From Hydrurus foetidus (Eukaryota), in assembly GCA_900617105.1 (NCBI GenBank), contig UYFQ01000771.1:1-50421 (forward strand): a stretch of 50,421 nucleotides of DNA, written 5' to 3'. Position 1 is the first letter of the stretch, and each line of letters starts with the position of its first letter. Of this stretch, positions 1-46,820 are shown piece after piece. The notes beneath the pieces are model-generated. The model ran no database searches. It saw only the letters and a list, made by a program, of their open reading frames with translations, and was not told the origin of the DNA. The position numbers were made by a program, and so were the translations under genes.

Positions 1-1
1 C

Positions 2-1567
2 GGCGATGACGAGTGCAATCTTGATCGATGACGCATTGACATTACCGCAGTATACTGCGTAGGGGTCGAAGTCGACCCAGGGTATCATGAGATCACCACG
101 ACCTACGAGGCGGGCCTTTTTGGTACCATCAGTTTTGATACTGAAGAGCCACATCATTGGTACGAGGTGCTGGCCGGTGAAAGGGACAGACCGGAAGCAG
201 TTGTTGACTTCAAACTTTGTGCGCTCAGTGTTGATGGCCTGTTCCCACTCTGGGTACTGCATTGCGGTCCAGAAGTCTTTGGGGATGTAGGGATCCTTGA
301 TTTGGACTGCGATGTTGTAGTGCAGGACACGGAAGAGGTGAACAGGGAAGCATGTGGAAGAACTGGTGTAGGTGGACCAGTATATCATGTCATCGTTGAC
401 TGAGTGCTCTGTCTCAGGTACAGGGGTTATATAGTCGGGGTCGATAAGGGGTGCAGGTGAGGGGAGGCCGGGTAGGTCGACTCGCTCAGGCACCACAATA
501 GGGTCATTATCATTATCAGTATAGTAGAGGGACGGGATGAGGGCGAAGGCCTCGTCGGTAGGGAAGTGTGCATCTGAGTCATGCTTGAAGTTGTTGTGCA
601 TGTCGAAGATGACATCCTTACTGACTCGAACAGTACCGTAGGTGTTCTTGGGTAGTATTTCTAATACTAAATATTGTGGTACTAGTATAGATGTAAAACT
701 ATAACCAACGAACCGAGCACGGTAGGCACGAGGTGACCCAACTTTACTTTTCTGATCTTTGGGTGCGTGCTTGACATAGCAGGGTGCCCAGAATGGTCGA
801 AGCATCCTGATGTCCACGTGTTGCCCAGAAGTGAAGTGATACGGAGAAGTACCAATACGCTTGTTAAGGTTAAAGGAATGAGTAACACATGCATAGGACA
901 TTGCAAGGTCCCAGAACTTCATTGGCACATGCGGAACAGGGGTTATCATGGCAACGTTGGTCTTGAGAGCTACAATGCCGACTGCTCGCTCAGCGATGCC
1001 GTTGGCATGTTTGTCACGAGGTGCAGTGTGCTCAAGTCGGTATCGGTATCGGGCGCAAAGCGCAGTAAATTCTTCAGATCGGTAGTTGGCCTCTGGGTCA
1101 TGCCGGATGAAGCGATCAACCCCAGGGGTATTGTGGTTCCATTGGGGGGTTAGGTCGAAGAAGGCTGCAATGCGGGCACAGAGTTCAGAGGCGGACCGGT
1201 CTTTTGTATATACAGGATAGTATTGTCCCGACGCGAGGTCGGTGAGGATGTGAGTGTAACGGTAGTTACGGAATGATGGAGTCGAGTGGGTATAGGCATC
1301 CAAGGAGAACTGCTGGCCGACGAGGGTAGTGGTGTCTCTGTGAATGCGACGATAGTCTGTGGATGCTTGACGCATTGCGCCATGGGCGCATCCAGGACAG
1401 ACCGGACGGGAGGTGTGTGCATCTTTGGTGGTGAAGCGAGCATTGAGGGAATGATCGCGGTGCCATGCCATGCCTGGAAGACCGGGGTGGCCTGTGGCTT
1501 GATGCACGTGGTCGTACAGTGAAGCGGGAGTATAGTGTGTGACCAAAAGACTCTCCCGAGTGGTTGG
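2..1567 (-). CDS. Copia A pol: integrase and N-terminus of reverse transcriptase (open to the window edge; absent from the ORF track)
   Basis: Manual translation in the frame of 1568..3508: LYDHVHQATGHPG...VCPGCAHG...FSLDAY...RHDPEANY...ANGIAERAVG...FWDLAM...ARFVGY...VSKDVIFD...WEQAINTE...WLFSIKTDGTKKARLVGRGD; no stop codon down to position 2. Confidence 0.92.
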
Positions 1568-3658
1568 TCAGTAGGGAGTCTCCACGTAGAGGCCGTCTTG
1601 GACGGTTCCACGGGTGACCTCCTTTCCATGCTGAGCTACCAGTGCAATGTAGGGAAGGGCTGATGCAGTCTCATAGAAGCGGAAGTCTTTATGAGTGAAG
1701 ATGCCGATGAAGTGGTCGTTGGTGACACCGCCAGCGCAGAACTGGGAGACAGAGACAAGGGTGCTGTCGCCTAGTGCAGGGAGAAGGAGGGTGCTAAGCT
1801 CCAACGGTCCGAGGCTGCCTTGGTGTGTTGGTGTCATGGACGGACCGAATGCAGGGGTGACTGTGACGGATGTGCTGACAGGTTCAATGCTGGTAAGACG
1901 TTGGGAGCGGCCGGTGCCAGAGCGTGAAGCACCAGAGTCGAAGATGACCTTGTCGGGGACGTGGAACGAGTTGAGTCTCTCATGTTGGGACTTGACGACG
2001 AATGTGTTGAGCTTGGAGTCGGAGGTACCGCCGGATGGTGCAGGAGGGCGAGCTGATGCAAGCGGAGGGCGAGTACTGTTGAAGGCATGTCGGACATTTG
2101 TCGAGCGTTGAGATCCGACTGGTGGAGTCATTCGGTGGCGCTGGGCACGAGGCATAGTGAAAGGCGAGTCGGATGCAAGTGGTTGCGCGGCTTGCCAACG
2201 TTTGAGTGACCCGGTAAGAGGGTCAGAGGGTGTCGATGGAACAGGTGGTAACGGAGTATTGAACTCCGGAAGCGTAGTGGGAATCGATGCAGAAGGTGAG
2301 GCGGAAGAGGATGCGGACGAGGACGAGGTAGTGTCTTGACGCTTAGTGTCCCCTTGAGCCTGGTCTTTCTGGAATGCGATGCCGCGCTTCCTGGCGTTGT
2401 ACCGCTGAAGTTCCATGGATGCGTCCGGTGGTACCCATGGGGATGCGTCTGATGGAGGGACCATGAGACGTGTGACGGCTCCATGTAGGTAGTTGACATA
2501 AGAGAGGGCGCATCGAGGGCCACTGATGTTATGTGTTGGACAGGACATGTTGTACGGGAGGAAACAGATGGAGTCTTCGACAGAGGATTCCGAATCGCTC
2601 TCATAGTTCCGCAAAGTGTATCTTTGGCGTATGTTCTGTGGGGCTGTAGATGCTGCGAGGTCCCTGGCGAGAGATACTGTGCGGTAGTGTGACTCGGTGG
2701 GTTCAACAGGATCGGGTCCGACGAAGAGGCTGTTGGGTGTAACATGAAATGCATCGGGTAGGACATGCTGGATTACGACTCGAATAGCTTGGATGAATGA
2801 CTCGTTCGATCCAGTTCGTGTCATAAGACCGTCAACGTGCGCATCAACTTCCGTGAGCATGAGTATGCGAAGTGTGGGAATGTTGTGCCAGGAGTTGCCG
2901 GGTGCATTGGCATATCGGGCAAGCTGTGCTGCGACCCAGGAGGCACAGTCGTAGATGAGGACACTTTCAAATATCGCCATGTGGTCTGGACTGATCTGGT
3001 CGTCGAGGTACAGAGCAGTGTGGACGAGGAAGTAAAAGAAAATGTTCCCGACTGTGGACTGATAGGTGGTGATGTCTTCAATCAAGGTTGGATTGAAGGT
3101 GCGGTAGTGCCCTGGGTCATACTCAAGATTGGGTGGAGTCGGCGGCTCAGTGTTGGCGAGCAGCAGGTTGCGAGCAATCTTGTGGATGAGGTTCATATAC
3201 CGAGAGTATCCGTCTCTGACATCAGCGCGGCAGTTGCTGAGGGTGGTTGGGGATACCCAGCCGAAAATAGCGAGGTATATATGAGGCGCCGGTGTAGGGG
3301 ATCCAGGCAAGGCGGGACGGTTCACATAGATGATGAAGTCATTTGCTGAGAGGGGCTGCTGATGAATGCGGTGGTGGACCACAGTGTAGTACTGAAGGAT
3401 GTACGTGGAGCATTGTCGGCAGATACCCTGGAAGACAGTGGAGGAGGTGACTTCGTCATTGGTGAGGAAGGCCCAGGTACGTGTGAAGGCATCGACTTCT
3501 TCTTGCATTGGGGTCCCATATGTTGGCGAGGAGATGTTCTGATGGCGCGGCGTGTCCCATGCTGTAGCATTCTCTGGGGCGACAGGAGTCGGGGGTACCC
3601 AGGAGTACTGGGGTAGATGCTGGTTGAGTATGTTCGGAACGTACGTACGGTCGGAGCA
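1568..3658 (-). CDS. Copia A middle segment: unknown ~550-aa region followed by aspartic protease
   Basis: The 646-aa ORF extends without a stop up to 3658. Protease motif VIFDSGASRS near 1930-1950, then TLVSVSQF and DGLY motifs typical of Copia PR/pre-integrase. Bounded by in-frame TAA (3659-3661) and TGA (1568-1570). Confidence 0.85.
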   Translation of the reverse strand, partial: CSDRTYVPNILNQHLPQYSWVPPTPVAPENATAWDTPRHQNISSPTYGTPMQEEVDAFTRTWAFLTNDEVTSSTVFQGICRQCSTYILQYYTVVHHRIHQQPLSANDFIIYVNRPALPGSPTPAPHIYLAIFGWVSPTTLSNCRADVRDGYSRYMNLIHKIARNLLLANTEPPTPPNLEYDPGHYRTFNPTLIEDITTYQSTVGNIFFYFLVHTALYLDDQISPDHMAIFESVLIYDCASWVAAQLARYANAPGNSWHNIPTLRILMLTEVDAHVDGLMTRTGSNESFIQAIRVVIQHVLPDAFHVTPNSLFVGPDPVEPTESHYRTVSLARDLAASTAPQNIRQRYTLRNYESDSESSVEDSICFLPYNMSCPTHNISGPRCALSYVNYLHGAVTRLMVPPSDASPWVPPDASMELQRYNARKRGIAFQKDQAQGDTKRQDTTSSSSASSSASPSASIPTTLPEFNTPLPPVPSTPSDPLTGSLKRWQAAQPLASDSPFTMPRAQRHRMTPPVGSQRSTNVRHAFNSTRPPLASARPPAPSGGTSDSKLNTFVVKSQHERLNSFHVPDKVIFDSGASRSGTGRSQRLTSIEPVSTSVTVTPAFGPSMTPTHQGSLGPLELSTLLLPALGDSTLVSVSQFCAGGVTNDHFIGIFTHKDFRFYETASALPYIALVAQHGKEVTRGTVQDGLYVETPY

Positions 3659-5233
3659 TTAAGGGAGAGGCGGCATTAGAAGATGGACGAGTTGGAGATC
3701 GCAGTGGTGAGTGTCCTGATGGAGGAGTCCTGGCGGAAGTGCTAACTCGAGAGGAGGATTAGACGGTGTATCCGGAGGAGGTGCTGGGTCAGTGTCGGTG
3801 ACTCGGAACATGTTGAGGGAGAAGCGCACATACCCGGAGGGTTCGGCGTTATCCAAAAGCGTGTTGTTCTGCCATCCGTCCTCAGGGTTGATGTTGGGTC
3901 CGTTGGTAAGAAGCTTCATGGGGATGTTGCTCTTGAGGTAAGGGACGCGACCATCAATACTCGTCACTGGGAAGGTCTGCTTGGGAGGGTACTTGCCCTT
4001 GGCTTTGATCCGGTTCTTGTCCGTGACTGGAGCGGATCCAGGTGGGGCAGGAGGATGTGCTTTGCCAGAGGGAGGTGTCGCTGCCGGTGGCTTAGCAGGA
4101 GCATGATAGTACTTGCACTTGTTACCGAGAAGGCAGGTACCAGCGAGGAACTTGCGGCAGGCTTCAGGGGTAGTGGACAAGGCAGCTATCTTGACCGGCT
4201 TGTCTTGTAGGAGGGCATACTCGGAATAGACAACAGCTCTCTCCAAAGTTTGGTGATAGGTGAGCATGTTGCTATGGCAGGACATAAAGTAGGATTTGGT
4301 GTTGGGGCGGTGGTCGTTCATGAAGGCGTTGTGAAGGAATTGAAGGCGCTCCTGCTCGGTGCTCGGTCTGGCCTGGGCATACTCGAATTCTGTCATTAAC
4401 GTTGTAAACCTCACTAAATCCTCTTGAAAACAAGTAGCCGTGGAGCCCTTGAAGTTTTGTAGAAGCCGCCGAAGTCGGTTGATGTCTGCTTCAGTATGTC
4501 CGTAGTAGTGCTTGTGCATACGTTTATAAATAGCGATCCCATCGCGAGAGGTAAAGGAATCGGCACATAGATAGTGGGTAGACTCGCTGAAAGCGTTCAA
4601 CATGACGTTGTAGAGACGTTTCTTGTCGTGGGCCCATCGTGTAACATCGTCGGCGGGTACATAATTGAAGGTGCCGTCCAAATTCTCCGACGTTGTAGGC
4701 TCCGAGTATCCTGATGGGTTAAGTCTCGTTGGGATTGGCTCGCGACGCGTGCCCATCGCCATTGGGTAGAGTCCAACGACATGGAGCATGTTGTCGAGAG
4801 CTTTGAAGCGCTTGTTAGATCCCACAGTCGTTGTGGTGATCTGGTTTTGCTTGATGCTATCCATTTCTGAAGAGGTCGTCAGAACGAGATCGAGTTTTAG
4901 CCGTTTTAGCTCCAAAACGGATTCCAAAGCGGCATTATATGATAGCCCATGTGCTGAAACTTCTGCCGAAGTTTGGCGCGGTGGCGTGGCTTCCTCTGCA
5001 TGGGAGCCTCGTCGAGGTCGGTTTGGTGTCGAAGGATTTTGACGATTTGCCGTCGAGCTGGTGACCAAATTTTGAGTTTGGGCTCTTATGGCCTCGGCGA
5101 CACGTTGATCGAACTCTGCAAGGGTCATGGAGAGCATGCGCGGCAGCTGGGCGCGGCTGGGAGTCTCTAGCCCAGTTGGGTCATGGTATTCCTCGTTGTT
5201 TTGGTCTGTGTTGTCGGACGATCGTAGCATCAT
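3659..5233 (-). CDS. Copia A gag-like protein with CCCH zinc finger
   Basis: First ATG after the PBS is at 5233. Gag-like core (DGIAIYKRMHKHYYG...RLRRLLQNFK) and C-x7-C-x5-C-x3-H motif CRKFLAGTCLLGNKCKYYH at 4103-4159. Confidence 0.8.
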   Translation of the reverse strand: MMLRSSDNTDQNNEEYHDPTGLETPSRAQLPRMLSMTLAEFDQRVAEAIRAQTQNLVTSSTANRQNPSTPNRPRRGSHAEEATPPRQTSAEVSAHGLSYNAALESVLELKRLKLDLVLTTSSEMDSIKQNQITTTTVGSNKRFKALDNMLHVVGLYPMAMGTRREPIPTRLNPSGYSEPTTSENLDGTFNYVPADDVTRWAHDKKRLYNVMLNAFSESTHYLCADSFTSRDGIAIYKRMHKHYYGHTEADINRLRRLLQNFKGSTATCFQEDLVRFTTLMTEFEYAQARPSTEQERLQFLHNAFMNDHRPNTKSYFMSCHSNMLTYHQTLERAVVYSEYALLQDKPVKIAALSTTPEACRKFLAGTCLLGNKCKYYHAPAKPPAATPPSGKAHPPAPPGSAPVTDKNRIKAKGKYPPKQTFPVTSIDGRVPYLKSNIPMKLLTNGPNINPEDGWQNNTLLDNAEPSGYVRFSLNMFRVTDTDPAPPPDTPSNPPLELALPPGLLHQDTHHCDLQLVHLLMPPLP

Positions 5234-5315
5234 GGCCGACTTGAGATATCTGTTGTGTTGAGATACCGTTGATATATTGATACTATATCGATGATTGCTG
5301 AACTTTCTATGCAAT

Positions 5316-5323
5316 CGCTACCA
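5316..5323 (-). promoter_or_regulatory. Primer-binding site of Copia A (TGGTAGCG, initiator tRNA-Met type)
   Basis: Minus strand reads ...CTCACA|TGGTAGCGA directly after the LTR end; TGGTAGCG matches the start of the Ty1-type iMet PBS. Confidence 0.75.
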
Positions 5324-5831
5324 TGTGAGTCAGACTGTGGAGTGAAGCGAGCTACCTGTTGGCTGCGGAAGCGCAAAGGAAAGACTGGCTGATGGAAGTG
5401 GTCTCGGAAGACGTGTTTACTTACAACGATCAAGTAGTAAAACAACTGGCGATGATATCAGAGAAGACAACCATCAAAGAAGCAAAGCAAAGCATCCATT
5501 GTGCATGAAATGGTGATCGCCGAAGTGGAAACATATTCAGCGAATATTCAAGTTGGCGATTGAGCAATGGGCGGAACCCTCGCTGCTCATGAAATCGGAT
5601 GCTTGGTGGAAACCGGATACCTGGTGGAAATCCGGATGCTTGGTGGTGAAAAACCGGATGCTTGGTGATGGCCCCGAAGGGGGATATCGCTAGAAGAACG
5701 ATGAGCGTATGTACACAACAGTGTATGGCGGTGTTTTGGGTGAGGAAGCGCTACACTACTTGTGACATGTGAATGCTAATCTACAGATGAAACTATGCTA
5801 ACAGATCATGCATGAATATGCTGGACTGACA
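5324..5831 (-). repeat. 5' LTR of Copia A (~508 bp)
   Basis: Termini TGTCAGTC...GACTCACA (7/8 inverted repeat, TG...CA) abutting the PBS. The partner LTR is outside the window, so the outer boundary is inferred. Confidence 0.7.
5597..5670. repeat. Four ~19-22 bp tandem repeats (CCGGATGCTTGGTGGAAA-like) within LTR A
   Basis: GGATGCTTGGTG/GGATACCTGGTG occurs four times in succession. Confidence 0.75.
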
Positions 5832-5832
5832 G

Positions 5833-6587
5833 TATGACAAAATGGCTAATTTGAAGATCAAAGCCTGGAAAACACTATGGCTATCAGATGATGATATTTA
5901 TCGCCCACCAGTTGTTAACAAGATCAAAGGAACAAAAAAAAAGCGGAGGTAGAGGGGGATCCGATCGCGAATGTGGCTGAAAATGACGATACAGAAGATG
6001 GTGAGAAAATAGGTACTCTTCAGGCATTCCATGGTGTTGGTACGAGAGGTCTCTTTTACTTTTTTGCAGAACACAGAGACGGACTTGGGGTACGACTTAG
6101 TGGTTGTCACTGTCCATTTTGTGTGAGATGTTACAGAAAAAACGGGATTGGGTCAATGCCTACAGGGTGCCTGAGTAATGAGCCATATCAGTATATTGTT
6201 TGCAACCGACTCGACGATGAGTGGACAAAACAAACATCATACCTTACAACTAGATTATCAGAGGGCTTAAGGGGTCAGGTGAAACAAGGTGATATAATAG
6301 CAGTGGCGAGTAAATGTCACCTAAAGGGATCAAATAATTGCATTTATGATTCCTTCGATATAGTGGAAGTTTTATTGATTCAAGATTCAACATTTACTGT
6401 CAACGTCTTCACTCGTCAACCGAATACACCAACTTATCATAACAGTGCTCCCGATAAAAGCATTGCTGTTTCTCATGCAAGCATACGTTACTTAGTATCT
6501 GATGCATGCTTAACGGTAGATTTTCGTGTTACATTGGATAGCATCACTCTAGAAAATATTGTAAAATCATATTTCAATGGTGTTTGA
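5833..6587 (+). pseudogene. 3' part of a gene interrupted by Copia A; Cys-rich C-terminal region, possibly of a DNA transposase (Sola2-like)
   Basis: Reading frame begins at the LTR edge (YDKMANLKIKAW...), shifts in the A9 run 5934-5942 into the 204-aa ORF with GTRGLFYF...VRLSGCHCPFC...C. Family assignment is from recollected motif resemblance only. Confidence 0.35.
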
Positions 6588-7066
6588 AGAATGGTAGAAA
6601 ATTGACCTTTGATTTTTGTTTAGAAGTGTTTTCGGCGACTTTTGACCCCTAAAACCCTGGGGTAAATATCCCCATATTTTGTAACGATTATATCTTTCAA
6701 AAAAAAAATTTTTTAATCGCTTCATATGGCTAATAAATAACGTTTAGATGTACCTTGACACAAAACCTGGAGTTGGGAGACTAAAAATTGAGAGAGTTAC
6801 AACGTTTCTAACTTCCCCCATATAACGGACGGGTACGGTGACCGTGGGGTTCGCCCTGAGTGTTCTGTAATGTTACAGCATAATAAAATTGACGATGGTG
6901 CATTGGTACAGGACTGAAAATTGTGCTCTTTTTCATGTCAAATAATTTTTTTTTCATGCAGCTATACGGTTCTAAAAATAAAAACGGTTTTTCTCTAGTT
7001 TCCGTTGTTTCCTCCCTTCCTATACCTAGACTCAAATCTGAGGCCAGCTTTCTAAAAGTCGAAGGC

Positions 7067-7388
7067 TGTTGGATATATCTGAGTTCATGACACGAACACA
7101 TTATGTGTACTTATGCATTCGTACAGCGGCGTACGGATTTATCTGTGTGTGTGTGTGTGTGTGTATTACGAAGATGTACGAGCCTAGAAAGTCACCGTAC
7201 TTCAAGAAGTAGTGTAAGATTTGAATTTGTAATGGCATCGAAATTGACTGGTGCCTTCAGTGGGGATGAAGCACAGTCTAATTAACAAGTGATTATCGAT
7301 ACTCTATATCCCATTTCACGAGTCTTGGCAAGTGAGCTAGTGTTCCGAAGGTCCACGTTCTACCCAGGAATCGAAAGGTTCTCCAACA
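7067..7388 (+). repeat. Copia B 5' LTR
   Basis: TGTTGGA...TCCAACA terminal inverted repeat; direct repeat at offset 5223; contains (TG)10. Confidence 0.96.
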
Positions 7389-7400
7389 TAATTAGACTGT
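7389..7400 (+). promoter_or_regulatory. Non-tRNA primer-binding site of Copia B, complementary to LTR 7273-7284
   Basis: TAATTAGACTGT is the exact reverse complement of ACAGTCTAATTA at 7273-7284; no TGG-starting PBS is present. Confidence 0.75.
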
Positions 7401-7412
7401 CGAGGCATTGGC

Positions 7413-10400
7413 ATGCCACCTAAATGCGCCGTTGAAGCGGTGAAAAGCACAGAGGAATGCATCCTTCAAATCGGCAAATTTAATAACATCATAAAATGGC
7501 GCGAAAGCATGCAAACGATAGTCACAGAACTATACGGCATAGTCGGGATGTTCTTCACTACGGATGTGAGATATGAACTCCCGCGCACCGCAATCAAATA
7601 TCCCGAAGCATCCGCATCGGAAGACTCAACATCAGAATCAGAAGACGAACTCGAAGGCGAGGCCGTCAGACCGATAGTACCGCCCGAAGTACGTGCCGCG
7701 TAGGCAGCGGGAAAAGCAGCGAGAGACGCCGCACGAGAAAGTCGAAACGAGCGACGTCGCCGCAGCAATGACAGATCGAGAGCAAAGTATAAAGAGGAGG
7801 AATACCTCCAGAGGAAACGCGACCTCAAGGCACAGAAGGAGCACGAGCGCACTATCTTCCCCATGATGTGGAAGCGTATGTCGACGGACTCCCAGAGTCG
7901 CGTCAAGGAAGAGGACGGGTATCGCACTGCCTACCTCACACTGGACTGTGTCCTACTATGGACCCTCATAAGAAGAACACACCTCACCCACATGTTCGGC
8001 GACACGGACCCGATGAAGGAAATCAATCAGCACGAACAGGAGAGTAAGTACGGGATGATGAGGCAGGGCGAGAGAGAGTTGATCACGACCTTCAAGGCCA
8101 GATTCGACGAGCAAGTCCTAGCGAACGATGCAGTTGGAGTCGCCAAGATCACCGACACCCTGCGTGCACTCGACTTCATCGGAAAGCTCGACCCAAAGCG
8201 ATACAGACGGATGATGACGGAGATGAGAAACGACGCACTCAGACAGAAACCGGATGCTTACCCCAAATCTCTCGCTGCCGCCTTCAGGATCGCCTCACAG
8301 TGGCGCAGTGACGGCACTCCAGCCACGGTACAATCACCCCTAGGGGCGTCGGCATTCGCCACGGAAGAAGTCCACGTCACCGCATCCAAGGATACCGAGA
8401 AGAGAACCGGGAAGACCGGAGGGGTCAGAAAGAAGTCGCTAGAAGACGTTGACTGCTACGCCTGTGATGGAAAGGGACACTATGCGAGGAATTGCCCGAA
8501 CAAGAAACCGTCATCAGAGAAAGTCCACGTATCGAAGGCTGAACCTGACAGTGACGATGAGAGCGAGAGAGACGATTGGGGAGTTGCACTCGTCACCGCA
8601 ACCGAGAAATGTCTGTTCTCACAGTACGATGTGCTGCTAGACAATGAAGCGTCATTGAACATCTTCAGCAACAAAGACCTCCTTACCGGAATCAGACGGG
8701 CAGAGAGGACGATCAAAGTAAGCGGGATACAATCTGGCGATGGAGTGACTGTGGATCGCGAAGGCGAGTTCGGCGAGTTCGGAACAGTTTTCTACAGTGG
8801 AGAGGCGTCAGCTAACATCCTATCATTTGCGTCACAGGTGGATGCAGGAGCAAATATCAGATATGACTATGTGAAGGACTGCTTTACTCTACGTCCTAAA
8901 GGAAGCATGAATGTATATCGTTTCGGGAGGAAGACAGTTCCCGGGAGCGAGGGCAGATTCTACTCCTGCGATTGGAGGAGTGTAGAAGTCGAGTCAGCGA
9001 TGATCGCCACCGTAGAACAGAACTCGCGAGCCTTCACGAGGCGCGAGATAGAGCGAGCGAGGGCTGCGCGAGAACTCATGGCTCGGATGGGATTTCCCTC
9101 GGTAGCAACAGCGATGTCGATAGTCAACGCGGGGAGCAATTTCGATATATCTGCGAGAGACTTCCAAGTTGCTGAATCGATTTGGGGTAGAGACTTGGCA
9201 TCGATTAAAGGGAAAACAACGAAACGAGCTACCGTAGCTGCTGATGTAACGATCAAGTCTAAAATCGTCCAGAGGGATCAGGTGCTATCAATCGATATTA
9301 TGTTTATTGACAAAATAGCTATACTGATCGGTGTGGCTACTCCTCTAGGACTAACTATGGCCTACAGCCTCAATAACTTGGTGCTAAAGAAGTCCAGCCG
9401 AGCAACAGAGCACGTGCGAAAAGGAATAGCCCATTTCCTAGGAGTGCTGGGATCGCAGGGTTTCAAGACATCAGTAATTATGAGCGATGGAGAAGGCGCA
9501 GTGATGACGCTGGTGGACGAGCTAGGAAAACTTGGAGTGGACGTCGATATCAGTGGAGCTGGTGGACACGTAGCAAGAGTTGAGCGAAAGATCAGAATCA
9601 TCAAGGAGAGAGTTAGGTCCCACGCAGCAGGGCATTTGTCTTTTACTTTATCGAGTGTAGGTATCGTTATGTGCGTACTGTACGTAGTGTCACGGCTGAA
9701 TTATGAACCGTACAGTGAGCGAGAGCACGGACCGAGTCCTAGAGAAGCATTCATTGGGAGGAAACCAGACGGGAAAAGAGATTTTAGATGCTCATTTGGT
9801 GATTATGTGCAGTGTACTGTACCTAAAACAGACTCGACTCTAAAATCTCGCACCGAAGATTGCATTGTTATGCTCCCACTTGGGAACCGAACTGGAACAG
9901 TGAGAATGCTGTCACTAGCGACAGGGAAGCTAGTTAACCGAGACCAATTTATCATATTGCCAATGCCGGAGTCAGTAATCAAGAGGATGAATGCACTTGC
10001 GCTTGCAGACGGTAGGGTGAAAGGCAAGGGTGACATGGAGAAAACTGACAGGCCATTTGAGCAGATTAGCGACATTGTAGACGGCCTACCTGAGACGATG
10101 GAAACAATTGTCAACGAGGGTGTAGACCCTTCAACTGACCTACATGACATGAACCACAGCCCCGAGTTGATATATGAAGAGATAGTCGAACGAGTGGATG
10201 TAGCACATCCGGACGAGCAGTGCGAAGAGGAGACTGTATATGCCGATGACATGATACCGACAGTGATGCCAGCAGAGAGAGTGCGAGTGGAACCGAGGGT
10301 GGTGGACATGGACGACATGATGAACAGCTTCAGAGAGCTAGCAGTAGGAGTACCTCACACTGCACCACTCGATACAGCTGACGAACACGGTGTGCCGGAA

Positions 10401-12221
10401 GACTACGGTGAGAATGGTGCGATTGACATGGGTGCACAGGAACCGAACACACCAGTAGCTACACCGCACACGTACTCAGCGCACGGACACAGGGTGATCC
10501 ATAGATCGGATCTGATGGACATGTTCAGATCAGACAAGCACGGGACAGCACTACTGACACGAAACTACGACTCTGCAGGAGGTGACTGGGGTGAGTTCGT
10601 ACTAAATATATCAGTGAACGAAGCACTGAGGACTAGAGGGAAAGATGCAGAGACTGTCATAAAGAAGGAACTGAGTCAGATGATCGCGAAGAAAGTGTGG
10701 ACGCCTGTAGACATACGCAGACTGTCATACGATGAGAAACGCCGCATCATCAGATCGAGCATGTTTCTGAAGGAGAAGTTCCTCGCCAGTGGGGAGTTCG
10801 AGAAGTTGAAAGCGAGACTAGTAGCGGGTGGAGACCAACAAGACAAGACACTGTATGACGACCTATCCGCACCGACTGTTGGGACCAGTTCAGTGTTCAC
10901 CCTGCTGTGCATCGCAGCGCACGAGGGACGGAAAGTCACAGTGATAGACATCAGCGGGGCATATCTTAATGCCGATATGAATACTGGACTCACTGTGCAT
11001 ATGAGACTAGACAAGAATATGACAGGAATGATGGTGAAGCTCTCACCAGAATATGCGGATTACGTGGATACACGAGGGAGCGTGGTGGTGCGATTAGACA
11101 AGGCTCTCTACGGGTGTGTCGAATCGGCAGCTCTATGGTATGAGAATCTCAAGGAGAGCATGAGAAAACTCGGGTACACACCAAACACCATAGACATATG
11201 CGTGTTCAACAAGCTGAGCGAAACGGGAGTGCAGTGCACAGTCGCAGTGCATGTGGATGACCTAATGATTACTAGCACTGACTCAGGCATGATAGAGTCA
11301 CTAGCAGCAGGGTTGATGGAGAGATACGGTGACATCACCCGAAAAGATGGGCCGATAGTGAACTACCTCGGGATGGTGTTCGATCTAACAGTGAGTGGGA
11401 GTGCTAAGGTGACGATGACTGGATATGTAGACGACATGCTGAGGGAAGTGGGGACGAGCAAGGGTGCACGCACCCCAGCCACCGAGGGGCTGTTCGAAGT
11501 GAGACCGGATGCACTCACAGTGAGTGAGGGACTGAGGGTGATGTTTCACAGGCATGTCGCTAAGATGCTGTATCTAGCGAAGCGTGCGCGACCAGACTGC
11601 CTAACTGCAGTTGCATTCCTAGCAACGAGAGTGACCAAGTGCACAGTGGACGACCTAGCCAAGCTGGATCGGCTCATGAAGTACGTGTGGAGAACGCGAG
11701 AGAGGGGAATAGTACTTGCACCTGGTGTGAAGGGAATAGTGGTGAGTGTGCTGATCGACGCGGCGTTCGGGGTACACGCAGATGGAAGATCGCACACTGG
11801 AAGCTGCATTGTGATTGGAGATAGTGGAGCAGTGCACTGCAAGTCTTCGAAGCAACAGATCGTCACGAAGTCAAGCACTGAAGCGGAGTTGGTTGCGTTG
11901 TCGGACTCAGCGAATCAAGCACTCCACCTGAGGAGCTTCATCATGGCACAGGGACACTCCTGTGGGCCAGTCACTATCCACCAGGACAACATGTCCTGCA
12001 TGGCCCTCATCGACCGAGGACGGTCAGCGGCAGAGCGTACCAGACACATATCGATCAAGTATTTCTGGTTGAAAGAGAGGGTGGACACAGGAGAAGCCAG
12101 GGTGAAGCACCTCGGTACCAAGGACATGTACGCGAACATGTTGACGAAGCCGCTCCAAGGAGCGCAATTCAAGGAAGAAAGAAAGGGAGTTACGGGATGG
12201 CCGGATGAAGACTTAGCTTAG
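7413..12221 (+). CDS. Copia B gag-pol polyprotein with one in-frame TAG at 7701-7703
   Basis: ORFs 7413..7703 and 7863..12221 share a frame with no other stop. CCHC knuckle CYACDGKGHYARNC, PR LLDNEAS, IN SIDIMF/SDGEG/ERKIR, RT KARLVAGG/DISGAYL/KALYG/HVDD, RNase H IDAAF/SSTEAE/QDN. N-terminus aligns with Copia C gag. Confidence 0.93.
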
Positions 12222-12289: not shown

Positions 12290-12610
12290 TGTTGGATATA
12301 TCTGAGTTCATGACACGAACACATTATGTGTACTTATGCATTCGTACAGCGGCGTACGGATTTATCTGTGTGTGTGTGTGTGTGTGTATTACGAAGATGT
12401 ACGAGCCTAGAAAGTCACCGTACTTCAAGAAGTAGTGTAAGATTTGAATTTGTAATGGCATCGAAATTGACTGGTGCCTTCAGTGGGGATGAAGCACAGT
12501 CTAATTAACAAGTGATTATCGATACTCTATATCCCATTTCACGAGTCTTGGCAAGTGAGCTAGTGTTCCGAAGGTCCACGTTCTACCCAGGAATCGAAAG
12601 GTTCTCCAAC
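12290..12610 (+). repeat. Copia B 3' LTR (last base displaced to 18218 by Copia C)
   Basis: Identical to 7067-7387 on manual comparison. Confidence 0.96.
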
Positions 12611-12939
12611 TGTTGGAGTATCCGGGAAAAGACACTTCAGTTGTTGTGTGTGCGTGTGTGTGGATCCCGACGGACAGCGGCGTGTACCCTTGGGGTAGTG
12701 GCCGGGACCCCGTTGGTTGCGTGATCTTTACGGACTCTGTCCGTTCAAGATACCCTGATTTGACTGATGCGTGCTTCAATCTTGATGATTGTAAAAGACT
12801 GTGTTGCCGTCGTGACATGGCTGGCAACACAAGTTTAATTATCAAGTGATTAAACAGAGGTCTTATTTCACGAGTCTTGGGTCCGAACTCGACTTACACG
12901 GAGTCACTGAATCCACTCAGATTCACCGAAATCCCAACA
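12611..12939 (+). repeat. Copia C 5' LTR
   Basis: TGTTGG...CCAACA termini; repeated at 17884. Confidence 0.96.
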
Positions 12940-12951
12940 TAATTAAACTTG
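12940..12951 (+). promoter_or_regulatory. Non-tRNA primer-binding site of Copia C, complementary to LTR 12830-12841
   Basis: TAATTAAACTTG is the exact reverse complement of CAAGTTTAATTA at 12830-12841. Confidence 0.75.
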
Positions 12952-12966
12952 AACCAGCGCATCGTG

Positions 12967-15900
12967 ATGCCGCCGAAGAAAGAAGAACTCAAAACTGCAA
13001 GAGAGCCTTGCATGTTGAAGATGGGGCGTCAGAACAACGTGATGCAATGGAAGGAAGAAATGCAAGACGAAGCATGCAGTTTATACGGCATGACCGGCAT
13101 GTTCTTCAGCACCGATGAAAGCCACTTCATACCGTATCCTCGCGAGGAGGATTACATTCCAAGACCTCCACCTCCTGTTAGAGACGAGGAGGAGACTGAC
13201 GACGACGAGTCAGTAGAGGAGGTCGTAGTGGGACCTGCACCTGCACCTGCACCTGTCCCGTTCACAGCTGCATTCCTGGAGAGATTGAGAGCCAATGCGT
13301 TTGAAGGACGCAGGAAGCTAGTCGAAGCGCAAAAGATCGACGAACAAAAGTTGTTCCCACTGATGTTGTCACGGATGTCGACCGCGTCTAAGTCCAAGGT
13401 TCGGGAGGAACCAGGGTACGAGGCTGCGAGGATGAGACTCGACAGTGTCAAACTTTGGGAGTTCATCAAACGCAGTCACCTCACACACGTCTATGGTGAG
13501 GATGATTCGATGCGCGCGGTGAACGTTCACGAGCAGACGATCAGGTACAACTACCTTCGTCAGGGTGATCGTGAGCTCATAGGTGAGTTCAAGACCAGAT
13601 TCGACAACCAACTGGCAGCAAATAGAGGAGTCGGTATGGAGGATGTTGAGGAGTCGATTAGGGCAATCGAGTTCTTAAGCAAACTAGATCCGAAAAGGTA
13701 TACATGTATGCTCACCGTGATGCGTAACAATGCTGTACAAAACTTGCCGAATAGCTACCCTTCTACCTTAGCCGGAGCGTACAGGATAGCTGCGTCCTGG
13801 ACGAACGCGAACGGAGCAGTCCCCCTCGGCGCCGAGCAACATTCCGCGTTTTTGACCGATTTGGCAATGACGACGAAAGAAAAGGGACCCAGAAAGAAAG
13901 TTCATGGGAAAGGTGTTCCGATGAAAAAGAAACCACTTTCATCGGTGATATGTTTCGTCTGTGGCGAAGCCGGGCACTACGCGCGCGACTGCCCGAATCG
14001 AAAAAGCGAAGACCAGGTACTCTATGCTGCCACAGAAGAAGACGTCGATGAGGACGATAGGACCGTCGAGTCGGCTTTCGTTGCCTCGAACGAGGCGGTA
14101 CTCTTCGCCAGGAGCCACGTCCTGCTCGACAACCAGGCGTCCGTCAACGTGTTCTGTAACGCGGACCTGCTTACCGACATTCGTCGCTCCAAGCATGGGA
14201 TCCTGCTCAATGGAGTCCAGGCTGAGACTGAAGCAGTCAGAGTCAATCTGGAAGGAGACTTCGGGGAAGTCGGGCCAGTGTATTACAGTCAGCTCGCCAC
14301 GGCGAACATCCTGTCCTTCGCAGCAATGGTCGACAGTGGAGCTGAGATTCGGTACAGCCAGTCGGATGAAAGGTTCACCCTGAAGCCGAGGGGCAGCCGA
14401 AACATCTACAGCTTTTGTAGGAGACCTGTCAGAGGCTCGGAAGGGAGATTCTACGTCTGTGACGTCGACTCTATGGTGAAGAGAGTGCCGACAAAGCACA
14501 GCGAGGAAACGGTGCTTGTCAACACCGTCAGCGACAACATGACACGGTTCACCAAGCGTGAAATTGCTTCAGCTGCGAAGGCGAGGGAGCTTCTAGCACG
14601 GATGGGATACCCACCCGTAGAGATGGCGATCGCCATGCTGCGCGGGGGGAACAACTTCAAGGTCACCGAGAACGATTTCAGGATAGCTCATTCTATCTGG
14701 GGGAAATGTCTCGCCAGCCTGAAGGGCAAATCTCACAAGATGAAGACGCCCATAGCCGACATCACGCTATGCGCTCCATTAGCACAAAAGCAACAGGTTT
14801 TGGCTGTGGACATTGCCTACATAGACAACACAGCGGTACTTATCGGGGTTGCCACCCCTCTGGACCTCACCCTCTCTAACAGTCTCATACGCTTTGACTC
14901 CACTAAACCCTCTCGATCTGCGCCCGTGGTAAAGGCTGCATTAGAAGAAATGATATCCACTCTCACTTCTAGGAGCTTCTCAGTCAAAGTCATCATGAGC
15001 GACGGCGAAGGTGCCGTCGGCAAAATCACGCCCAATCTCAGGGCGCTGGGGATCGAGGTGGACATCAGTGCAGCGGGTGGCCATGTGGCTAGAATCGAGC
15101 GCCGGATTCAGATGGTCAAAGAACGATGCAGGGCACACATCTGCGGACGACTTCCATTCACTTTAACTGACTTGGGTAACACTATGCTTGTCCTATATTG
15201 CGTCTCACGTATCAACTGTCAGCAATCAGGATCAAGGCCCGGGGGTCTTTCGCCGCGAGAACTTTTTTCCGGACGGCGGGTTGACGGGACCCTGGACTTT
15301 CGCGCCGCCTTTGGGGACTATGCTGTGTGCACCGTGCCCAACACCAATAACACGATGGATTCGCGCACCGAAGACTGCATCGTCATGGGGCCCAATCACA
15401 ACCGCACCGGAAGCTACAAAATGATGTCGCTCGTGTCTGGACGGATCGTATCAAGGGACAACTTCAAGATCCTTCCCATGCCACAGTCCGTCATCCAGAC
15501 GTTGAACTCATGGGCACTACGAGAAGGGAAGAAAATTCCCCGTTCTAAAGTGCATGTATTCGATGAATTGCTGTTTGGAAATCATGACGACAAATCTAAT
15601 ATCCCACAATTCATTACCAACCCCCCCACCCAGGATGGCGTTGTCGACATCCAGATGGGGACTCAGTCGACTGGACCTCAACCTCAACCCGTCATAGCCG
15701 ACCTTCCTCACGCCGACAACGTCATCGAGCTGCCATATTCCGAAGTGGGGGGGGGTACCTGGAGTACTGGACCTTGGGATCATGGCACCTCAAGTGGACG
15801 ATGTCGCCCTACCCATCAAAACTACTGACGCACTCAGTCCACCGCATATCCCCCTGGGGGATCCTTCCCAACCGGTCGATGTACGACATCCACCACCACC

Positions 15901-17761
15901 ACCGATGACAACTGACCTCATCGGAGCTGTACTAAGCGGGTCAGACAGCGCAGCGGCAAGCGGCGCACTACCACCGTCACCTCCTCCTCGAGTCATTGAG
16001 TTCTTTCGCACCGGAGAAGGAGCATTCGTCACGACGAATACGAGCGTACGTACTACAGCCGCTGGATCAGCGACCATCCTACACAGCATCGAGGAAGTGC
16101 TGAAGCGACACGTGCTCGAGACGAGCAGAAACGACACCGCCAACATCAGTGTGAGGGAGGCACTGCGCACTCGGGGTGCAGAGGCAAACAAAGTGATCAC
16201 CCAAGAACTCAAGCAGATGCTTGACAGGAGAGTGTGGGTGCCCATCGAGGGTGCGAAGCTCACCGCGTCGCAGCGATCAGCGGTGATCCGATCATCCATG
16301 TTCCTCAAGCGCAAGAACAATCCCGACGGAACATTCCTCAAGCTCAAGGCGAGGCTCGTAGCTGGGGGGGATCAACAAGACAAGGGTCTGTACGACGACC
16401 TCTCATCGCCCACGGTCTCAACCAGTGCGGTGTTCACACTGCTAGCAGTGGCAGCCCACGAGAACCGACGAGTAGCAGTGGTGGACATCAGCGGAGCATA
16501 CCTCAACGCCTACATGACCAAGGGTGTAGCGGTCCACATGAGACTCGACCGCACGATGACTGGCTTCATTACCAACATCGATCCCAGCTACAAGAAGCAC
16601 GTGGATGCGGGTGGAGGGATCATAGTGCTACTCAAGAAAGCACTCTACGGGTGCGTGGAGAGTGCTGGCCTCTGGTACGACAACCTCAAAGACTCCATGA
16701 GTGCACTAGGGTACACGAGAAACGCGTGCGACCGGTGCGTATTCAACCGGATCGGACCGGATGGAGTCCAATGCACTGCGGCCGTACACGTAGACGACTT
16801 GCTCATCACGAGCAAGAGCAAATCCCTGATGACTCACCTAGTCGAAGGGCTGCGCAATAGGTACGGTGAAATCACACTTACCTACGGTCCCATTGTTAAC
16901 TACCTCGGAATGCGTATAGATCTATCCATACCAGGGCGTGCGGAGATCACCATGCAAGGATACTCGGACGAGGTCGTGTCCACATCAGGGGTGCTCGGGA
17001 CAGCGCGATCACCCGCAACCGACGGGCTATTCGAGACAAGAGAGGGCGCTGAGCTAGCAGGGGAGGCAGCTAGAGTGTGGTTCCACAAAGCTGTCGCCAT
17101 GGTCCTATACCTCGCCAAGCGCACCAAACCCGAGTGCCTCACCGCTGTGTCGTACCTCACCACGCGAGTGACCAAGTGCACGGTGGACGATCTCGACAAG
17201 CTGCAGCGTCTCATTAGATACATCAGAGCAACCCGGGACCATGGACTGGTACTGATGCCGGGTGCAGGGGGGATCACTGTGAAGCTATACGTGGACGCAT
17301 CCTACGGAGTCCACCACGATGTGAAGTCCCACACTGGGAGCTGCATAGTGATCGGAGACATCGGAGCGGTGCACTGTAGGTCGAGCAAGCAGCTCATCGT
17401 CACCAAGTCGAGCACCGAGGCGGAGTTAGTGGGACTCTCCGACTCGGCCAACCAGGGCCTATTCATCCGTACTTTTCTTATCGCACAGGGATACCACATG
17501 CCGGCGATGACGATCCTACAGGACAACCAGTCCTGCATGGCGCTCATAGCGAGGGGGCGATCAGGAGCGGAGCGCACAAGACACATCCAGATACGCTACT
17601 TCTGGGTCAAGGAGCGGGTGGACAAGGGCGAGGCAAAGATCGAGTACTTACGCTCGGAGGACATGTACGCCAACGTACTTACCAAGCCGCTCCAGGGTGC
17701 ACAGTTCGTGCGAGAGAGAGGGTGCCTCACGGGATGGGCACAAGAGACAGCGAGCAATTGA
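12967..17761 (+). CDS. Copia C gag-pol polyprotein, frameshifted at G9 run 15747-15755
   Basis: ATG at 12967 (MPPKK; B starts MPPKC). CFVCGEAGHYARDC, LLDNQAS and IN in the first frame; RT/RH (KARLVAGG, HVDD, YVDASY, SSTEAE) in the +1 frame. Removing one G joins the two frames. Confidence 0.93.
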
Positions 17762-17883: not shown

Positions 17884-18212
17884 TGTTGGAGTATCCGGGA
17901 AAAGACACTTCAGCTGTTGTGTGTGCGTGTGTGTGGATCCCGACGGACAGCGGCGTGTACCCTTGGGGTAGTGGCCGGGACCCCGTTGGTTGCGTGATCT
18001 TTACGGACTCTGTCCGTTCAAGATACCCTGATTTGACTGATGCATGCTTCAATCTTGATGATTGTAAAAGACTGTGTTGCCGTCGTGACATGGCTGGCAA
18101 CACAAGTTTAATTATCAAGTGATTAAACAGAGGTCTTATTTCACGAGTCTTGGGTCCGAACTCGACTTACACGGAGTCACTGAATCCACTCAGATTCACC
18201 GAAATCCCAACA
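17884..18212 (+). repeat. Copia C 3' LTR
   Basis: Near-identical copy of 12611-12939. Confidence 0.96.
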
Positions 18213-18440
18213 CCAACAAAGGCCAGGTTCGCTCTAGCCTACTGTGCACTATCCACCCTCAACTCTCAGAGCACCTTCCTACAGTATTCCCGTCGATAAG
18301 TCATGGGATATCGACGGTGTCAAATCGGTTTGCCAACAGTTTTGACGGAGCGAAGCGAAGTAAACTGTGGCAGAAGAGAGAGCATTCTTCGTATCGTCTC
18401 TGGTCTCGGTGCTGTAAAACTGTCGTTACTTTCGACCAAA

Positions 18441-19967: not shown

Positions 19968-22900
19968 CAAAAATTGTCACCGACTTCATAATAAATTACT
20001 CACTTTTCTACCAAAATTGTAATTTTTTATTATCGACTTCATAATAAATCACTCACTTTATATCAGCAAAAATTAATGGCATTATCATTTTCAGTAACAA
20101 ATTGATAATAAAAAGTAGGAAAAATGTAGTCAATATTAACCCAATTTTAATAAAAAGTATACTGAATAAAAAGTGTCACTCATTTTTTTTCGATCTCAGA
20201 AAACCCTGAAGTCAGCGATTTTTTTTAATCCAACTCACAATTTTAGATGTAAAAAAACGAAAAAATCTCGGCAAATAAAATCCTAGCTTTTTAATTTTAT
20301 CCACTTTTCTTTTATCCACTTTTCTTTTATCCACTTTTCTTTTTTGTTTTAGTATATTAGGAGTGTAAATATACCTCAGCTATGCTGATGCATTTGAGTC
20401 CAAAAGCAAGCATTCGAACTCGTTATCTATGACTTCTATAATGACGTTGCGCAAGCGCAACGGGCGCCTGAAGGGCGCCTTATCTCTAGTCGAACTATAC
20501 AAAAAATTGTCACCGACTTCATAATAAATGATTCACTTTTCTACCAAAATTGTAATTTTTTATTATCGACTTCATAATAAATCACTCACTTTATATCAGC
20601 AAAAATTAATGGCATTATCATTTTCAGTAACAAATTGATAATAAAAAGTAGGAAAAATGTAGTCAATATTAACCCAATTTTAATAAAAAGTATACTGAAT
20701 AAAAAGTGTCACTCATTTTTTTTCGATCTCAGAAAACCCCGAAGTCAGCTATTTTTTTTAATCCAACTCACAATTTTAGATGTAAAAAAACGAAAAAATC
20801 TCGGCAAATAAAATCCTAGCTTTTTAATTTTATCCACTTTTCTTTTATCCACTTTTCTTTTATCCACTTTTCTTTTTTGTTTTAGTATATTAGGAGTGTA
20901 AATATACCTCAGCTATGCTGATGCATTTGAGTCCAAAAGCAAGCATTCGAACTCGTTATCTATGACTTCTATAATGACGTTGCGCAAGCGCAACGGGCGC
21001 CTGAAGGGCGCCTTATCTCTAGTCGAACTATACAAAAAATTGTCACCGACTTCATAATAAATGATTCACTTTTCTACCAAAATTGTAATTTTTTATTATC
21101 GACTTCATAATAAATGACTCACTTTTTCACGAAATAATCAGCAAAAATTAATGGTATTATCATTTTCAGTAACAAATTGATAATAAAAAGTAGGAAAAAT
21201 GTAGTCAATAATAACACAATTTTCATAAAAAATATACCGAATAAAAAGTGTCACTCATTATTTTACATTCTCAGAAAACCCCGGAATCAGCTATTTTTTT
21301 AATCCAACTCACAATTTTAGATGTAAAAAAACGAAAAAATCTCGGCAAATAAAATCCTAGCTTTTTAATTTTATCCACTTTTCTTTTATCCACTTTTCTT
21401 TTATCCACTTTTCTTTTATCCACTTTTCTTTTTTGTTTTAGTATATTAGGAGTGTAAATATACCTCAGCTATGCTGATGCATTTGAGTCCAAAAGCAAGC
21501 ATTCGAACTCGTTATCTATGACTTCTATAATGACGTTGCGCAAGCGCAACGGGCGCCTGAAGGGCGCCTTATCTCTAGTCGAACTATACAAAAAATTGTC
21601 ACCGACTTCATAATAAATGATTCACTTTTCTACCAAAATTGTAATTTTTTATTATCGACTTCATAATAAATGACTCACTTTTTCACGAAATAATCAGCAA
21701 AAATTAATGGTATTATCATTTTCAGTAACAAATTGATAATAAAAAGTAGTAAAAATGTAGTCAATAATAACACAATTTTCATAAAAAATATACCGAATAA
21801 AAAGTGTCACTCATTATTTTACATTCTCAGAAAACCCCGGAATCAGCTATTTTTTTTAATCCAACTCACAATTTTAGATGTAAAAAAACGAAAAAATCTC
21901 GGCAAATAAAATCCTAGCTTTTTAATTTTATCCACTTTTCTTTTATCCACTTTTCTTTTATCCACTTTTCTTTTATCCACTTTTCTTTTTTGTTTTAGTA
22001 TATTAGGAGTGTAAATATACCTCAGCTATGCTGATGCATTTGAGTCCAAAAGCAAGCATTCGAACTCGTAATCTATGACTTCTATAATGACGTTGCGCAA
22101 GCGCAACGGGCGCCTGAAGGGCGCCTTATCTCTAGTCGAACTATACAAAAAATTGTCACCGACTTCACAATAAATGATTCACTTTTCTACCAAAATTGTA
22201 ATTTTTTATTATCGACTTCATAATAAATGACTCACTTTTTCACGAAATAATCAGCAAAAATTAATGGTATTATCATTTTCAGTAACAAATTGATAATAAA
22301 AAGTAGTAAAAATGTAGTCAATAATAACACAATTTTCATAAAAAATATACCGAATAAAAAGTGTCACTCATTATTTTACATTCTCAGAAAACCCCGGAAT
22401 CAGCTATTTTTTAATCCAACTCACAATTTTAGATGTAAAAAACGAAAAAATCTCGGCAAATAAAATCCTAGCTTTTTAATTTTATCCACTTTTCTTTTAT
22501 CCACTTTTCTTTTATCCACTTTTCTTTTATCCACTTTTCTTTTTTGTTTTAGTATATTAGGAGTGTAAATATACCTCAGCTATGCTGATGCATTTGAGTC
22601 CAAAAGCAAGCATTCGAACTCGTTATCTATGACTTCTATAATGACGTTGCGCAAGCGCAACGGGCGCCTGAAGGGCGCCTTATCTCTAGTCGAACTATAC
22701 AAAAAATTGTCACCGACTTCATAATAAATGATTCACTTTTCTACCAAAATTGTAATTTTTTACTATCGACTTCATAATAAATGACTCACTTTTTCACGAA
22801 ATAATCAGCAAAAATTAATGGTATTATCATTTTCAGTAACAAATTGATAATAAAAAGTAGTAAAAATGTAGTCAATAATAACACAATTTTCATAAAAAAT

Positions 22901-40240: not shown

Positions 40241-40379
40241 AGGTGTGGAAGATATGACAATTGAAAGGAATAGAGTTCTTGGCTATCCATTTTTCAGAAG
40301 AAAGAATGAGATGTTGATGAATTGTATTTGGTTGCGATTGAGATCAAATGAATCGTCACCTTTTGAATGTGTTCTTCGA

Positions 40380-41767: not shown

Positions 41768-41869
41768 AACTTTGACGTGATGGTTTAAGTTGGAGGAGTC
41801 GAAGACAAAAAGTCGGAAAAGAGAAAAACTTTCTCGGAGGAAACTTCGGTGAAGACCGAATATCGATAT

Positions 41870-42138
41870 TGTGGTCTGACGGCGGGGCCTAGGACGGGAG
41901 GCGAAGTTGGAGAAGGCGGAGGACGGAAGGCGTGGGCAAACGAAGGCAAAGTCGAGAGTCGGTGGAATAGACTTGTGTTAGTATCTTACAGTTGAGTATA
42001 TACAAGTGATGTGTACGCTAAGTGCATTCACGTCATATGTGGAACTAAGACCTAAAAGTGGAATCTGAGCGTAATATACCTATTGTACCTAGTTAACCTA
42101 GACACATTGTCTTCCCTTAGGAATGCAATAAGGCTACA
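41870..42138 (-). repeat. Gypsy 5' LTR
   Basis: Direct repeat of 37615-37883. Confidence 0.95.

Positions 42139-42889: not shown

Positions 42890-46820
<3,931 letters not shown>

Follow-up and report, generated by a model that had tools for sequence, protein, structure and literature searches.

The closest described relatives in mechanism of the elements reported here are Tf1 and Tf2 of Schizosaccharomyces pombe and, more broadly, the Tf1/sushi group, in which the primer-binding site (PBS) shows complementarity to the 5′ end of the element's own RNA (PMC7175516, PMC4600332, bioRxiv 10.1101/2022.12.06.519325). In Tf1, the PBS pairs with bases 1 to 11, cleavage by RNase H falls between bases 11 and 12 (PMC7175516), and the priming structure has been described as a three-duplex pretzel (bioRxiv 10.1101/2022.12.06.519325). 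Among Ty1/copia elements, the plant TAR lineage (Houba, Osr-1) has been predicted to self-prime by complementarity between the LTR and the PBS (PMC6317226), and the accessible part of PMC2806351 makes no mention of self-priming. A literature search, mainly of openly readable texts, found no self-priming copia element in diatoms or other stramenopiles, nor a junction of the kind described below. To our knowledge, the gypsy element Tf1 is the only one for which self-priming has been elucidated; the copia case consists of sequence complementarity alone.

The window analyzed here is a stretch of 50,421 nucleotides from Hydrurus foetidus (contig UYFQ01000771.1) that contains two copia elements, B and C. 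The 12 nucleotides immediately 3′ of each of their 5′ LTRs are complementary to a stretch of the LTR about 100 nt upstream, and at this site lies a real, constrained RNA element that belongs to the predicted self-priming region of a copia subclade.

Two young copia elements in the window

Both elements are encoded on the forward strand. Element B begins with a 5′ LTR of 322 bp (positions 7067 to 7388, TGTTGG...CCAACA) that shows 0 differences from the 3′ LTR (12290 to 12610), which holds a second copy of the motif and whose last base was moved to 18218 by the insertion of C. Its Gag-Pol frame (7413 to 12221) encodes a zinc knuckle, RVT_2, and RNase H, with one in-frame stop in gag (7701 to 7703). 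Element C consists of a 5′ LTR of 329 bp (12611 to 12939), a Gag-Pol region (12967 to 17761) carried by two overlapping frames (12943 to 15828 and 15698 to 17761), and a 3′ LTR (17884 to 18212) that differs from the 5′ LTR at 2 of 329 positions. The target duplications are intact and 5 bp long in both cases: AAGGC for B (7062 to 7066 and 18219 to 18223) and CCAAC for C (12606 to 12610 and 18213 to 18217). With TG...CA direct repeats, 5-bp target duplications, a zinc knuckle in each, and copia-type reverse transcriptase (RT) (Pfam RVT_2; E values of 7e-25 in B and 2e-21 in C), B and C are complete, very young Ty1/copia elements. They are not members of the Ty3/gypsy chromoviruses (the Tf1/sushi group), as their RT is of the copia type. 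A Pfam profile search of B and C returned no integrase match; a D-D-E pattern precedes the RT, as judged by eye only, and the frame ends with RNase H.

Relatives of B and C comprise 47 proteins with 44 to 91% identity, the close ones coming only from environmental data, and named plant and fungal copia proteins reach 22 to 29% identity over part of the polyprotein only. Runs with matching DNA derive from freshwater, sediment, biofilm, and air metagenomes and from one coded organism (20 rows, 12 studies). The host is probably a microbial eukaryote of aquatic habitats; the Atlas label "Bacillariophyta," given by one labeled member per cluster, is no more than a lead. Viral contigs contained no protein relatives, and none of their 15 pattern matches was in an LTR context. 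The 24 contigs L079 to L102, which were binned in prokaryotic MAGs, encode such eukaryotic retroelements, which points to binning contamination. Element C integrated between the final C and A of the 3′ LTR of B (12606 to 12611 and 18213 to 18223). A head-to-tail array appearance was seen in related loci, where L042 carries two different LTRs of related families and L050 and L052 repeat whole units. The insertion of C in B and these array-like loci hint that LTR ends are possibly targeted.

Elsewhere in the window, positions 1 to 5317 carry, on the reverse strand, another copia-like element, the third and different from B and C, which has a zinc finger of the CCCH type (weak Pfam match), and no perfect self-complementary PBS of at least 8 bp was found for it in 5301 to 6700. 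Positions 20290 to 37500 hold 32 near-identical units of about 555 nt and 30% GC, each with a GC-rich hairpin followed by CTAG, an arrangement that we take to resemble a Helitron 3′ end. A gypsy-type remnant with RNase H followed by integrase (38416 to 41977, reverse strand), transposase-like fragments (43705 to 46820, forward strand), and a DDE_1 transposase (47270 to 49057, reverse strand) were also identified.

Motifs shared by the two LTRs

A sequence-only reading of this DNA had reported short words shared by the otherwise dissimilar LTRs of B and C, and the positions it gave are exact: CAAGTGATTA at 7286 to 7295 and 12843 to 12852, and ATTTCACGAGTCTTGG at 7313 to 7328 and 12865 to 12880. 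The 16-mer ATTTCACGAGTCTTGG is the longest word common to the two LTRs, and 0 of 2,000 Markov-shuffled LTRs reach 16; the 10-mer CAAGTGATTA alone is not significant (253 of 2,000 reach 10). Neither is a second shared 10-mer in U3 (7123 and 12674), which had been missed; it occupies a similar place in both LTRs, near a TG repeat, and is possibly a promoter motif. Third-codon identity between B and C is 0.42 to 0.51 in the RT-RNase H blocks, and because synonymous sites are near saturation, 16 identical nucleotides are not expected from neutral shared descent. A shared word that exceeds chance at this divergence reflects constraint. The pentamer CGAAA, reported as a further shared word near the LTR end, is indeed present (7372 to 7376 and 12927 to 12931) but is not a conserved part: it starts at −16 relative to the LTR end in B and at −12 in C, and it is polymorphic, with G>A at 7373 in about half of the contig depth (6,926 of 13,619, summed over the B-like copies of run X1). 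The motif region is provisionally labeled R/U5.

Predicted self-priming across the clade

The predicted self-primer of B is a 12-nt arm at 7273 to 7284, which forms the 5′ arm of the primer/PBS helix (P1) and the predicted transcript start; it is complementary to the PBS at 7389 to 7400, which does not begin with TGG. The PBS of C (12940 to 12951) is likewise complementary to the primer arm at 12830 to 12841. A total of 106 related loci were fetched, of which the 40 with a locatable gag start were used for an unselected duplex test. The best WACA-anchored duplex beats all 30 shuffles in 12 of these 40 loci, with about 1.3 expected, and many duplexes of 9 to 10 bp are singly not significant. 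A second set of 47 LTRs (45 metagenomic loci plus B and C) was chosen for a visible LTR-PBS duplex, leaving out L055 (uncertain LTR end), L029 (near-duplicate of L025), the duplicates L070 and L104, and loci in which no LTR-PBS region could be seen. Within this duplex-selected set, no PBS begins with TGG, the tRNA 3′-end type (0/47), PBS 9-mers are distinct in 42 of the 47, perfect P1 pairing from the LTR end extends over 9 to 17 bp in 44, and three or four pair types occur at most positions of the duplex. Variation in P1 is also seen within the family: most B-like contigs carry C at PBS base 7394, and a 1-base deletion at 7279 is common. The primer and PBS of L103 are both one base shorter, matching each other.

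An initiator-like CA marks the start of the primer arm in 31 of the 47 LTRs (7.3 expected), and TCA does so in 18 (2.9 expected), an excess suggesting that the 5′ arm of P1 is the 5′ end of the transcript. An initiator with its start at A has been described for stramenopiles (PMC3599244). In the RNA runs, four X18 contigs cover 7313 to 7389 and then pass into unrelated sequence, and X19 yielded none; such contigs cannot show ends or strand. On these sequence patterns, we consider it very likely that B, C, and their relatives prime reverse transcription from their own RNA in the manner of Tf1.

Layout and covariation of the proposed junction

The sequence-only reading had proposed that P1 meets two further helices, GTGA/TCAC (P2) and TTGG/CCAA (P3), in a three-way junction. 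In B, the predicted cut site (7284/7285, after TAATTA) is followed by ACAA (7285 to 7288), the 5′ strand of P2 (GTGA, 7289 to 7292), a loop of variable sequence and length (7293 to 7315), the 3′ strand of P2 (TCAC, 7316 to 7319), the segment GAGTC (7320 to 7324), and the 5′ strand of P3 (TTGG, 7325 to 7328). The 3′ strand of P3, CCAA, together with an unpaired terminal CA, lies at 7383 to 7388 and is also the presumed integrase attachment end; all four strands of P2 and P3 are assigned by covariation. The corresponding parts of C, downstream of its primer arm, are TCAA (12842 to 12845), P2 (12846 to 12849 with 12868 to 12871), GAGTC (12872 to 12876), and P3 (12877 to 12881 with 12933 to 12937).

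WCAA and GAGTC had been regarded as conserved linkers. They are probably not free but paired with each other, extending P2 to the 3′ end of the primer through a C-G pair and tandem purine mismatches. In constrained folding of B, L103, and L002, the first two letters of WCAA and the GT of GAGTC pair and enclose a 2x2 purine loop (AA/GA, or GA/GA in L002); for B, the energy model alone predicts ACAA as the partner of GAGT, through A-U, C-G, and tandem A.A/A.G. No covariation is seen in this extension, and its pairing is disrupted in L044. The GAGTC segment is itself variable, occurring as GAGTC, GAGCC, AAGCC, AAGCA, and, in L044, CACTT, and it follows RAGYM in 6 of 7 subclade LTRs.

The RT-RNase H tree groups B and C with L001, L002, L008, L042, L044, L081, L082, L083, and L085 (support, 0.967), and L103 was placed by its Gag identity (65%). 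Seven LTR+PBS regions of this subclade are readable besides those of B and C. The strict 4/5/2 geometry of the junction recurs in L002 (53% RT identity), the second L042 LTR (49%), and L044 (52%), and it recurs with one mismatch in L103 and the first L042 LTR; the near relatives L001 and L083 have no junction. Across the five positive LTRs (L103, L002, two in L042, and L044; about 49 to 65% protein identity), 18 of 20 P2 pairs and 19 of 20 P3 pairs are preserved, compared with 4 to 11 of 20 after sliding by 1 to 3 nt, and every one of the four P2 positions, along with positions 3 and 4 of P3, shows double changes. L103, L002, and the second L042 LTR were anchored by the GAGTC sequence alone, whereas knowledge of the structure guided the anchoring of L044 and the first L042 LTR; the three GAGTC-anchored LTRs by themselves give 11 of 12 pairs in P2 and 11 of 12 in P3. 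Counting B and C, the argument for the junction comprises seven related sequences only, in all of which the geometry is constant, with 4 nt to the primer 3′ end and 2 nt to the PBS, while the loops measure 9 to 31 nt and the distance from the primer end to GAGTC ranges from 21 to 43 nt.

Among closer copies, most of the variation lies in the two loops. In run X1, 76 contigs of B-like copies gave 24 substitution rows, the P2 loop accounting for 10 and the interior of P3 for 12, with 1 in 7312 to 7327 and 1 at 7328; all 12 listed indels fall in loops, nine of them in the P2 loop, and the ends of the stretch are under-reported. The proposed three-way junction is supported by compensatory changes in relatives that were not among the sequences of the original proposal, within the nearest subclade only, and we judge it likely that it forms as RNA.

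Thermodynamic prediction and the wider clade set limits on this conclusion. In the energy model, the predicted probability of P3 is 0.00 to 0.03 in B and C, and the junction lies above the minimum fold by 4.4 (B), 3.8 (C), and 2.2 (L044) kcal/mol; it is the minimum-energy fold in L103 and L002 only and is not predicted in either L042 LTR. Folding of the junction may need protein. The RNAalifold check that had been suggested with the original proposal returned 0 pairs from a MAFFT alignment of four LTRs, in which the 3′ ends were misaligned. The strict 4/5/2 junction is present in 1 of 39 distant LTRs and in 5 of 47 overall (1.7 expected), and its pattern had no match in five MAG genomes. Clade-wide, P2 is not enriched (21 of 47 LTRs), and pairing of the U5 end exceeds that of controls in 32 of 47 (p = 0.005), a modest enrichment. 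Since P2 is not enriched and the strict junction is rare in distant LTRs, the junction is not needed for self-priming generally. As read from these sequences, predicted self-priming is clade-wide, while the putative junction is a subclade elaboration and confined to that subclade.

Two other pairings were considered and rejected. Both L103 and L002 disrupt the alternative CAAG/CTTG and have compensatory changes in TTGG/CCAA, and a pretzel-type leader duplex in B is not enriched and is disrupted by the commonest family variant at 7411. Across the 47 LTRs, there was no sign of the third duplex of Tf1, in which the leader after the PBS pairs with the LTR (mean z, −0.09).

Proposed mechanism and alternative explanations

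In the mechanism that we propose, transcription would start at the 5′ end of the primer arm, and the first ~12 nt would fold back onto the PBS to form P1. P2, extended by the C-G pair and the tandem purine mismatches, would stack on P1, and this stacking would put the bond after TAATTA inside a continuous helix; P3 would close U5 beside the PBS, like the U5 stem of Tf1. P2 and P3 would thereby frame the cut site for RT/RNase H. RNase H would cut at or near the bond after TAATTA and leave a 3′-OH, which the RT would extend, copying U5-R. Conservation covers the RT aspartates as well as the first three carboxylates of RNase H. At the fourth RNase H carboxylate (about 12100 to 12200 in B), Asn occurs in both B and C, in 31 of 33 near proteins, and in 27 of 86 loci, including every junction-bearing lineage examined, and Asp in 52 of 86 loci and in outgroups. 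This position tolerates Asn in other RNases H. The reading as a whole, that a three-helix junction presents the 5′ end of the element to its own RT/RNase H for primer cutting, seems to us moderately probable. A recognition structure for RT/RNase H, one of two functions offered by the sequence-only reading, appears to be the best interpretation, and positioning of RT/RNase H as the job of the junction is somewhat probable when considered by itself.

The junction could form and serve another RNA step, such as Gag packaging or dimerization, strand transfer, or translation control with the AUG hairpin, with P1 alone releasing the primer. Most self-complementary relatives lack a strict junction, a predicted hairpin holds the gag start codon in each of B, C, L103, and L042, and the invariant RAG letters resemble a protein contact, all as this explanation would have it. 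The spacing, however, is locked to the primer 3′ end and to the PBS despite loops of such different lengths, which ties the structure to the priming site and leaves the explanation unlikely. The hairpin in question, a short predicted one that includes the gag ATG (7413), spans 7404 to 7417 in B and about 12959 to 12971 in C; similar ones occur in L103 and L042, and its loop is variable. The motifs might instead act as DNA, as a downstream promoter element, a 3′-end signal, or an integrase end, or be leftovers of common descent with incidental 4-bp stems. The predicted start site does lie just upstream of them, CCAACA forms the end of the LTR and is under constraint as DNA in any case, and P3 is not favored by the energy model in B or C. 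Yet the inner P3 strand covaries with the LTR end (TTAC/GTAA and TGAC/GTCA), P2 shows double changes, and the distance between the primer end and GAGTC is far from fixed. AATAAA is absent from both LTRs, inspection by eye found no fit to the oomycete DPEP or FPR patterns as given in the accessible part of PMC3599244, and the near-saturated synonymous sites argue against common descent. We regard this DNA-level account as improbable.

The other function that had been offered, an uncharacterized catalytic RNA, gained no positive support, with no Rfam or core match, a variable linker, and an RNase H that retains its first three carboxylates. A few letters (C, A, and A.G) are fixed down to about 49% RT identity, and the fourth RNase H carboxylate is Asn in all junction-bearing lineages examined; but the Asp-to-Asn change also occurs in many junction-less loci, and the linker degenerates to CACTT in L044. 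An Rfam scan of positions 1 to 20500 of the window gave nothing but weak matches of TG repeats to SCARNA7, away from the motif, a scan of five related loci gave 0 matches, and the hammerhead core (CTGA.GA) and the hairpin-ribozyme loop-B are absent from both strands of LTRs B and C. HDV-like, pistol, and twister-sister folds were rejected on strand order, by eye against consensus features; TTCACG and CGAA resemble HDV-like segments, with their partner strands in the wrong order. An RT cannot extend a 2′,3′-cyclic phosphate without repair, and such an end is the wrong chemistry for priming. It is the end that small self-cleaving ribozymes leave (PMC8782182). That the junction frees the primer unaided, as an undescribed catalytic RNA, is therefore barely credible. 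The wider proposal, in which a subclade that has lost the fourth RNase H carboxylate frees its self-primer by means of a new RNA with a catalytic or co-catalytic role, is very improbable; if true, it would be the first ribozyme making an LTR retrotransposon's own primer. The present evidence does not point to new chemistry, and presentation of the cut site to RT/RNase H remains the preferred reading.

Comparison with known systems

Several retroelements share single features with B and C. Plant TAR elements are also copia elements with predicted self-priming, but they probably form a separate lineage with a separate host range, as judged from the named plant and fungal copia proteins compared, and a conserved junction is not described in the accessible part of PMC6317226. 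Fungal GalEa copia elements, with their Conserved Hairpin Site, similarly have no tRNA PBS and are AT-rich after the LTR (PMC5445492); their authors found no complementary LTR sequence, whereas the partner in B and C lies inside the LTR. The U5-IR stem of RSV (PMC3601003, PMC5445492) is likewise short and closes immediately ahead of the PBS. Retroviruses, unlike B and C, use a tRNA primer, and no cleavage is needed to make it. LTR retrozymes with hammerhead ribozymes also carry a structured RNA inside the LTR; in contrast, B and C have no hammerhead core, are autonomous, and have their structure at the priming site.

The comparison with Tf1 is the most informative. Both systems have a second helix between the U5 end and the inner LTR, which here is supported by covariation in the subclade and is not energy-favored in B and C, and P3 corresponds to one flanking duplex of the pretzel. 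RNase H cutting at the primer end has been shown for Tf1 and is predicted from sequence for B and C. Where Tf1 has a leader-LTR duplex, the subclade has a local hairpin, P2, right after the primer in a closed three-way junction, and perfect primer pairing in the B/C clade varies, from 9 to 17 bp, in contrast to Tf1. Tf1 and sushi belong to Ty3/gypsy, whereas B and C belong to Ty1/copia (RVT_2). The subclade provides an RNA that is compact (about 130 nt) and whose fold, supported by covariation, is unlike the Tf1 pretzel; this allows a direct test of how a copia RT/RNase H recognizes and cuts an RNA-RNA duplex. By analogy, we infer that the junction works like the Tf1 priming structure in elements that are not members of the Tf1 group, a likeness that bears on whether the copia and gypsy superfamilies reached the same priming solution independently.
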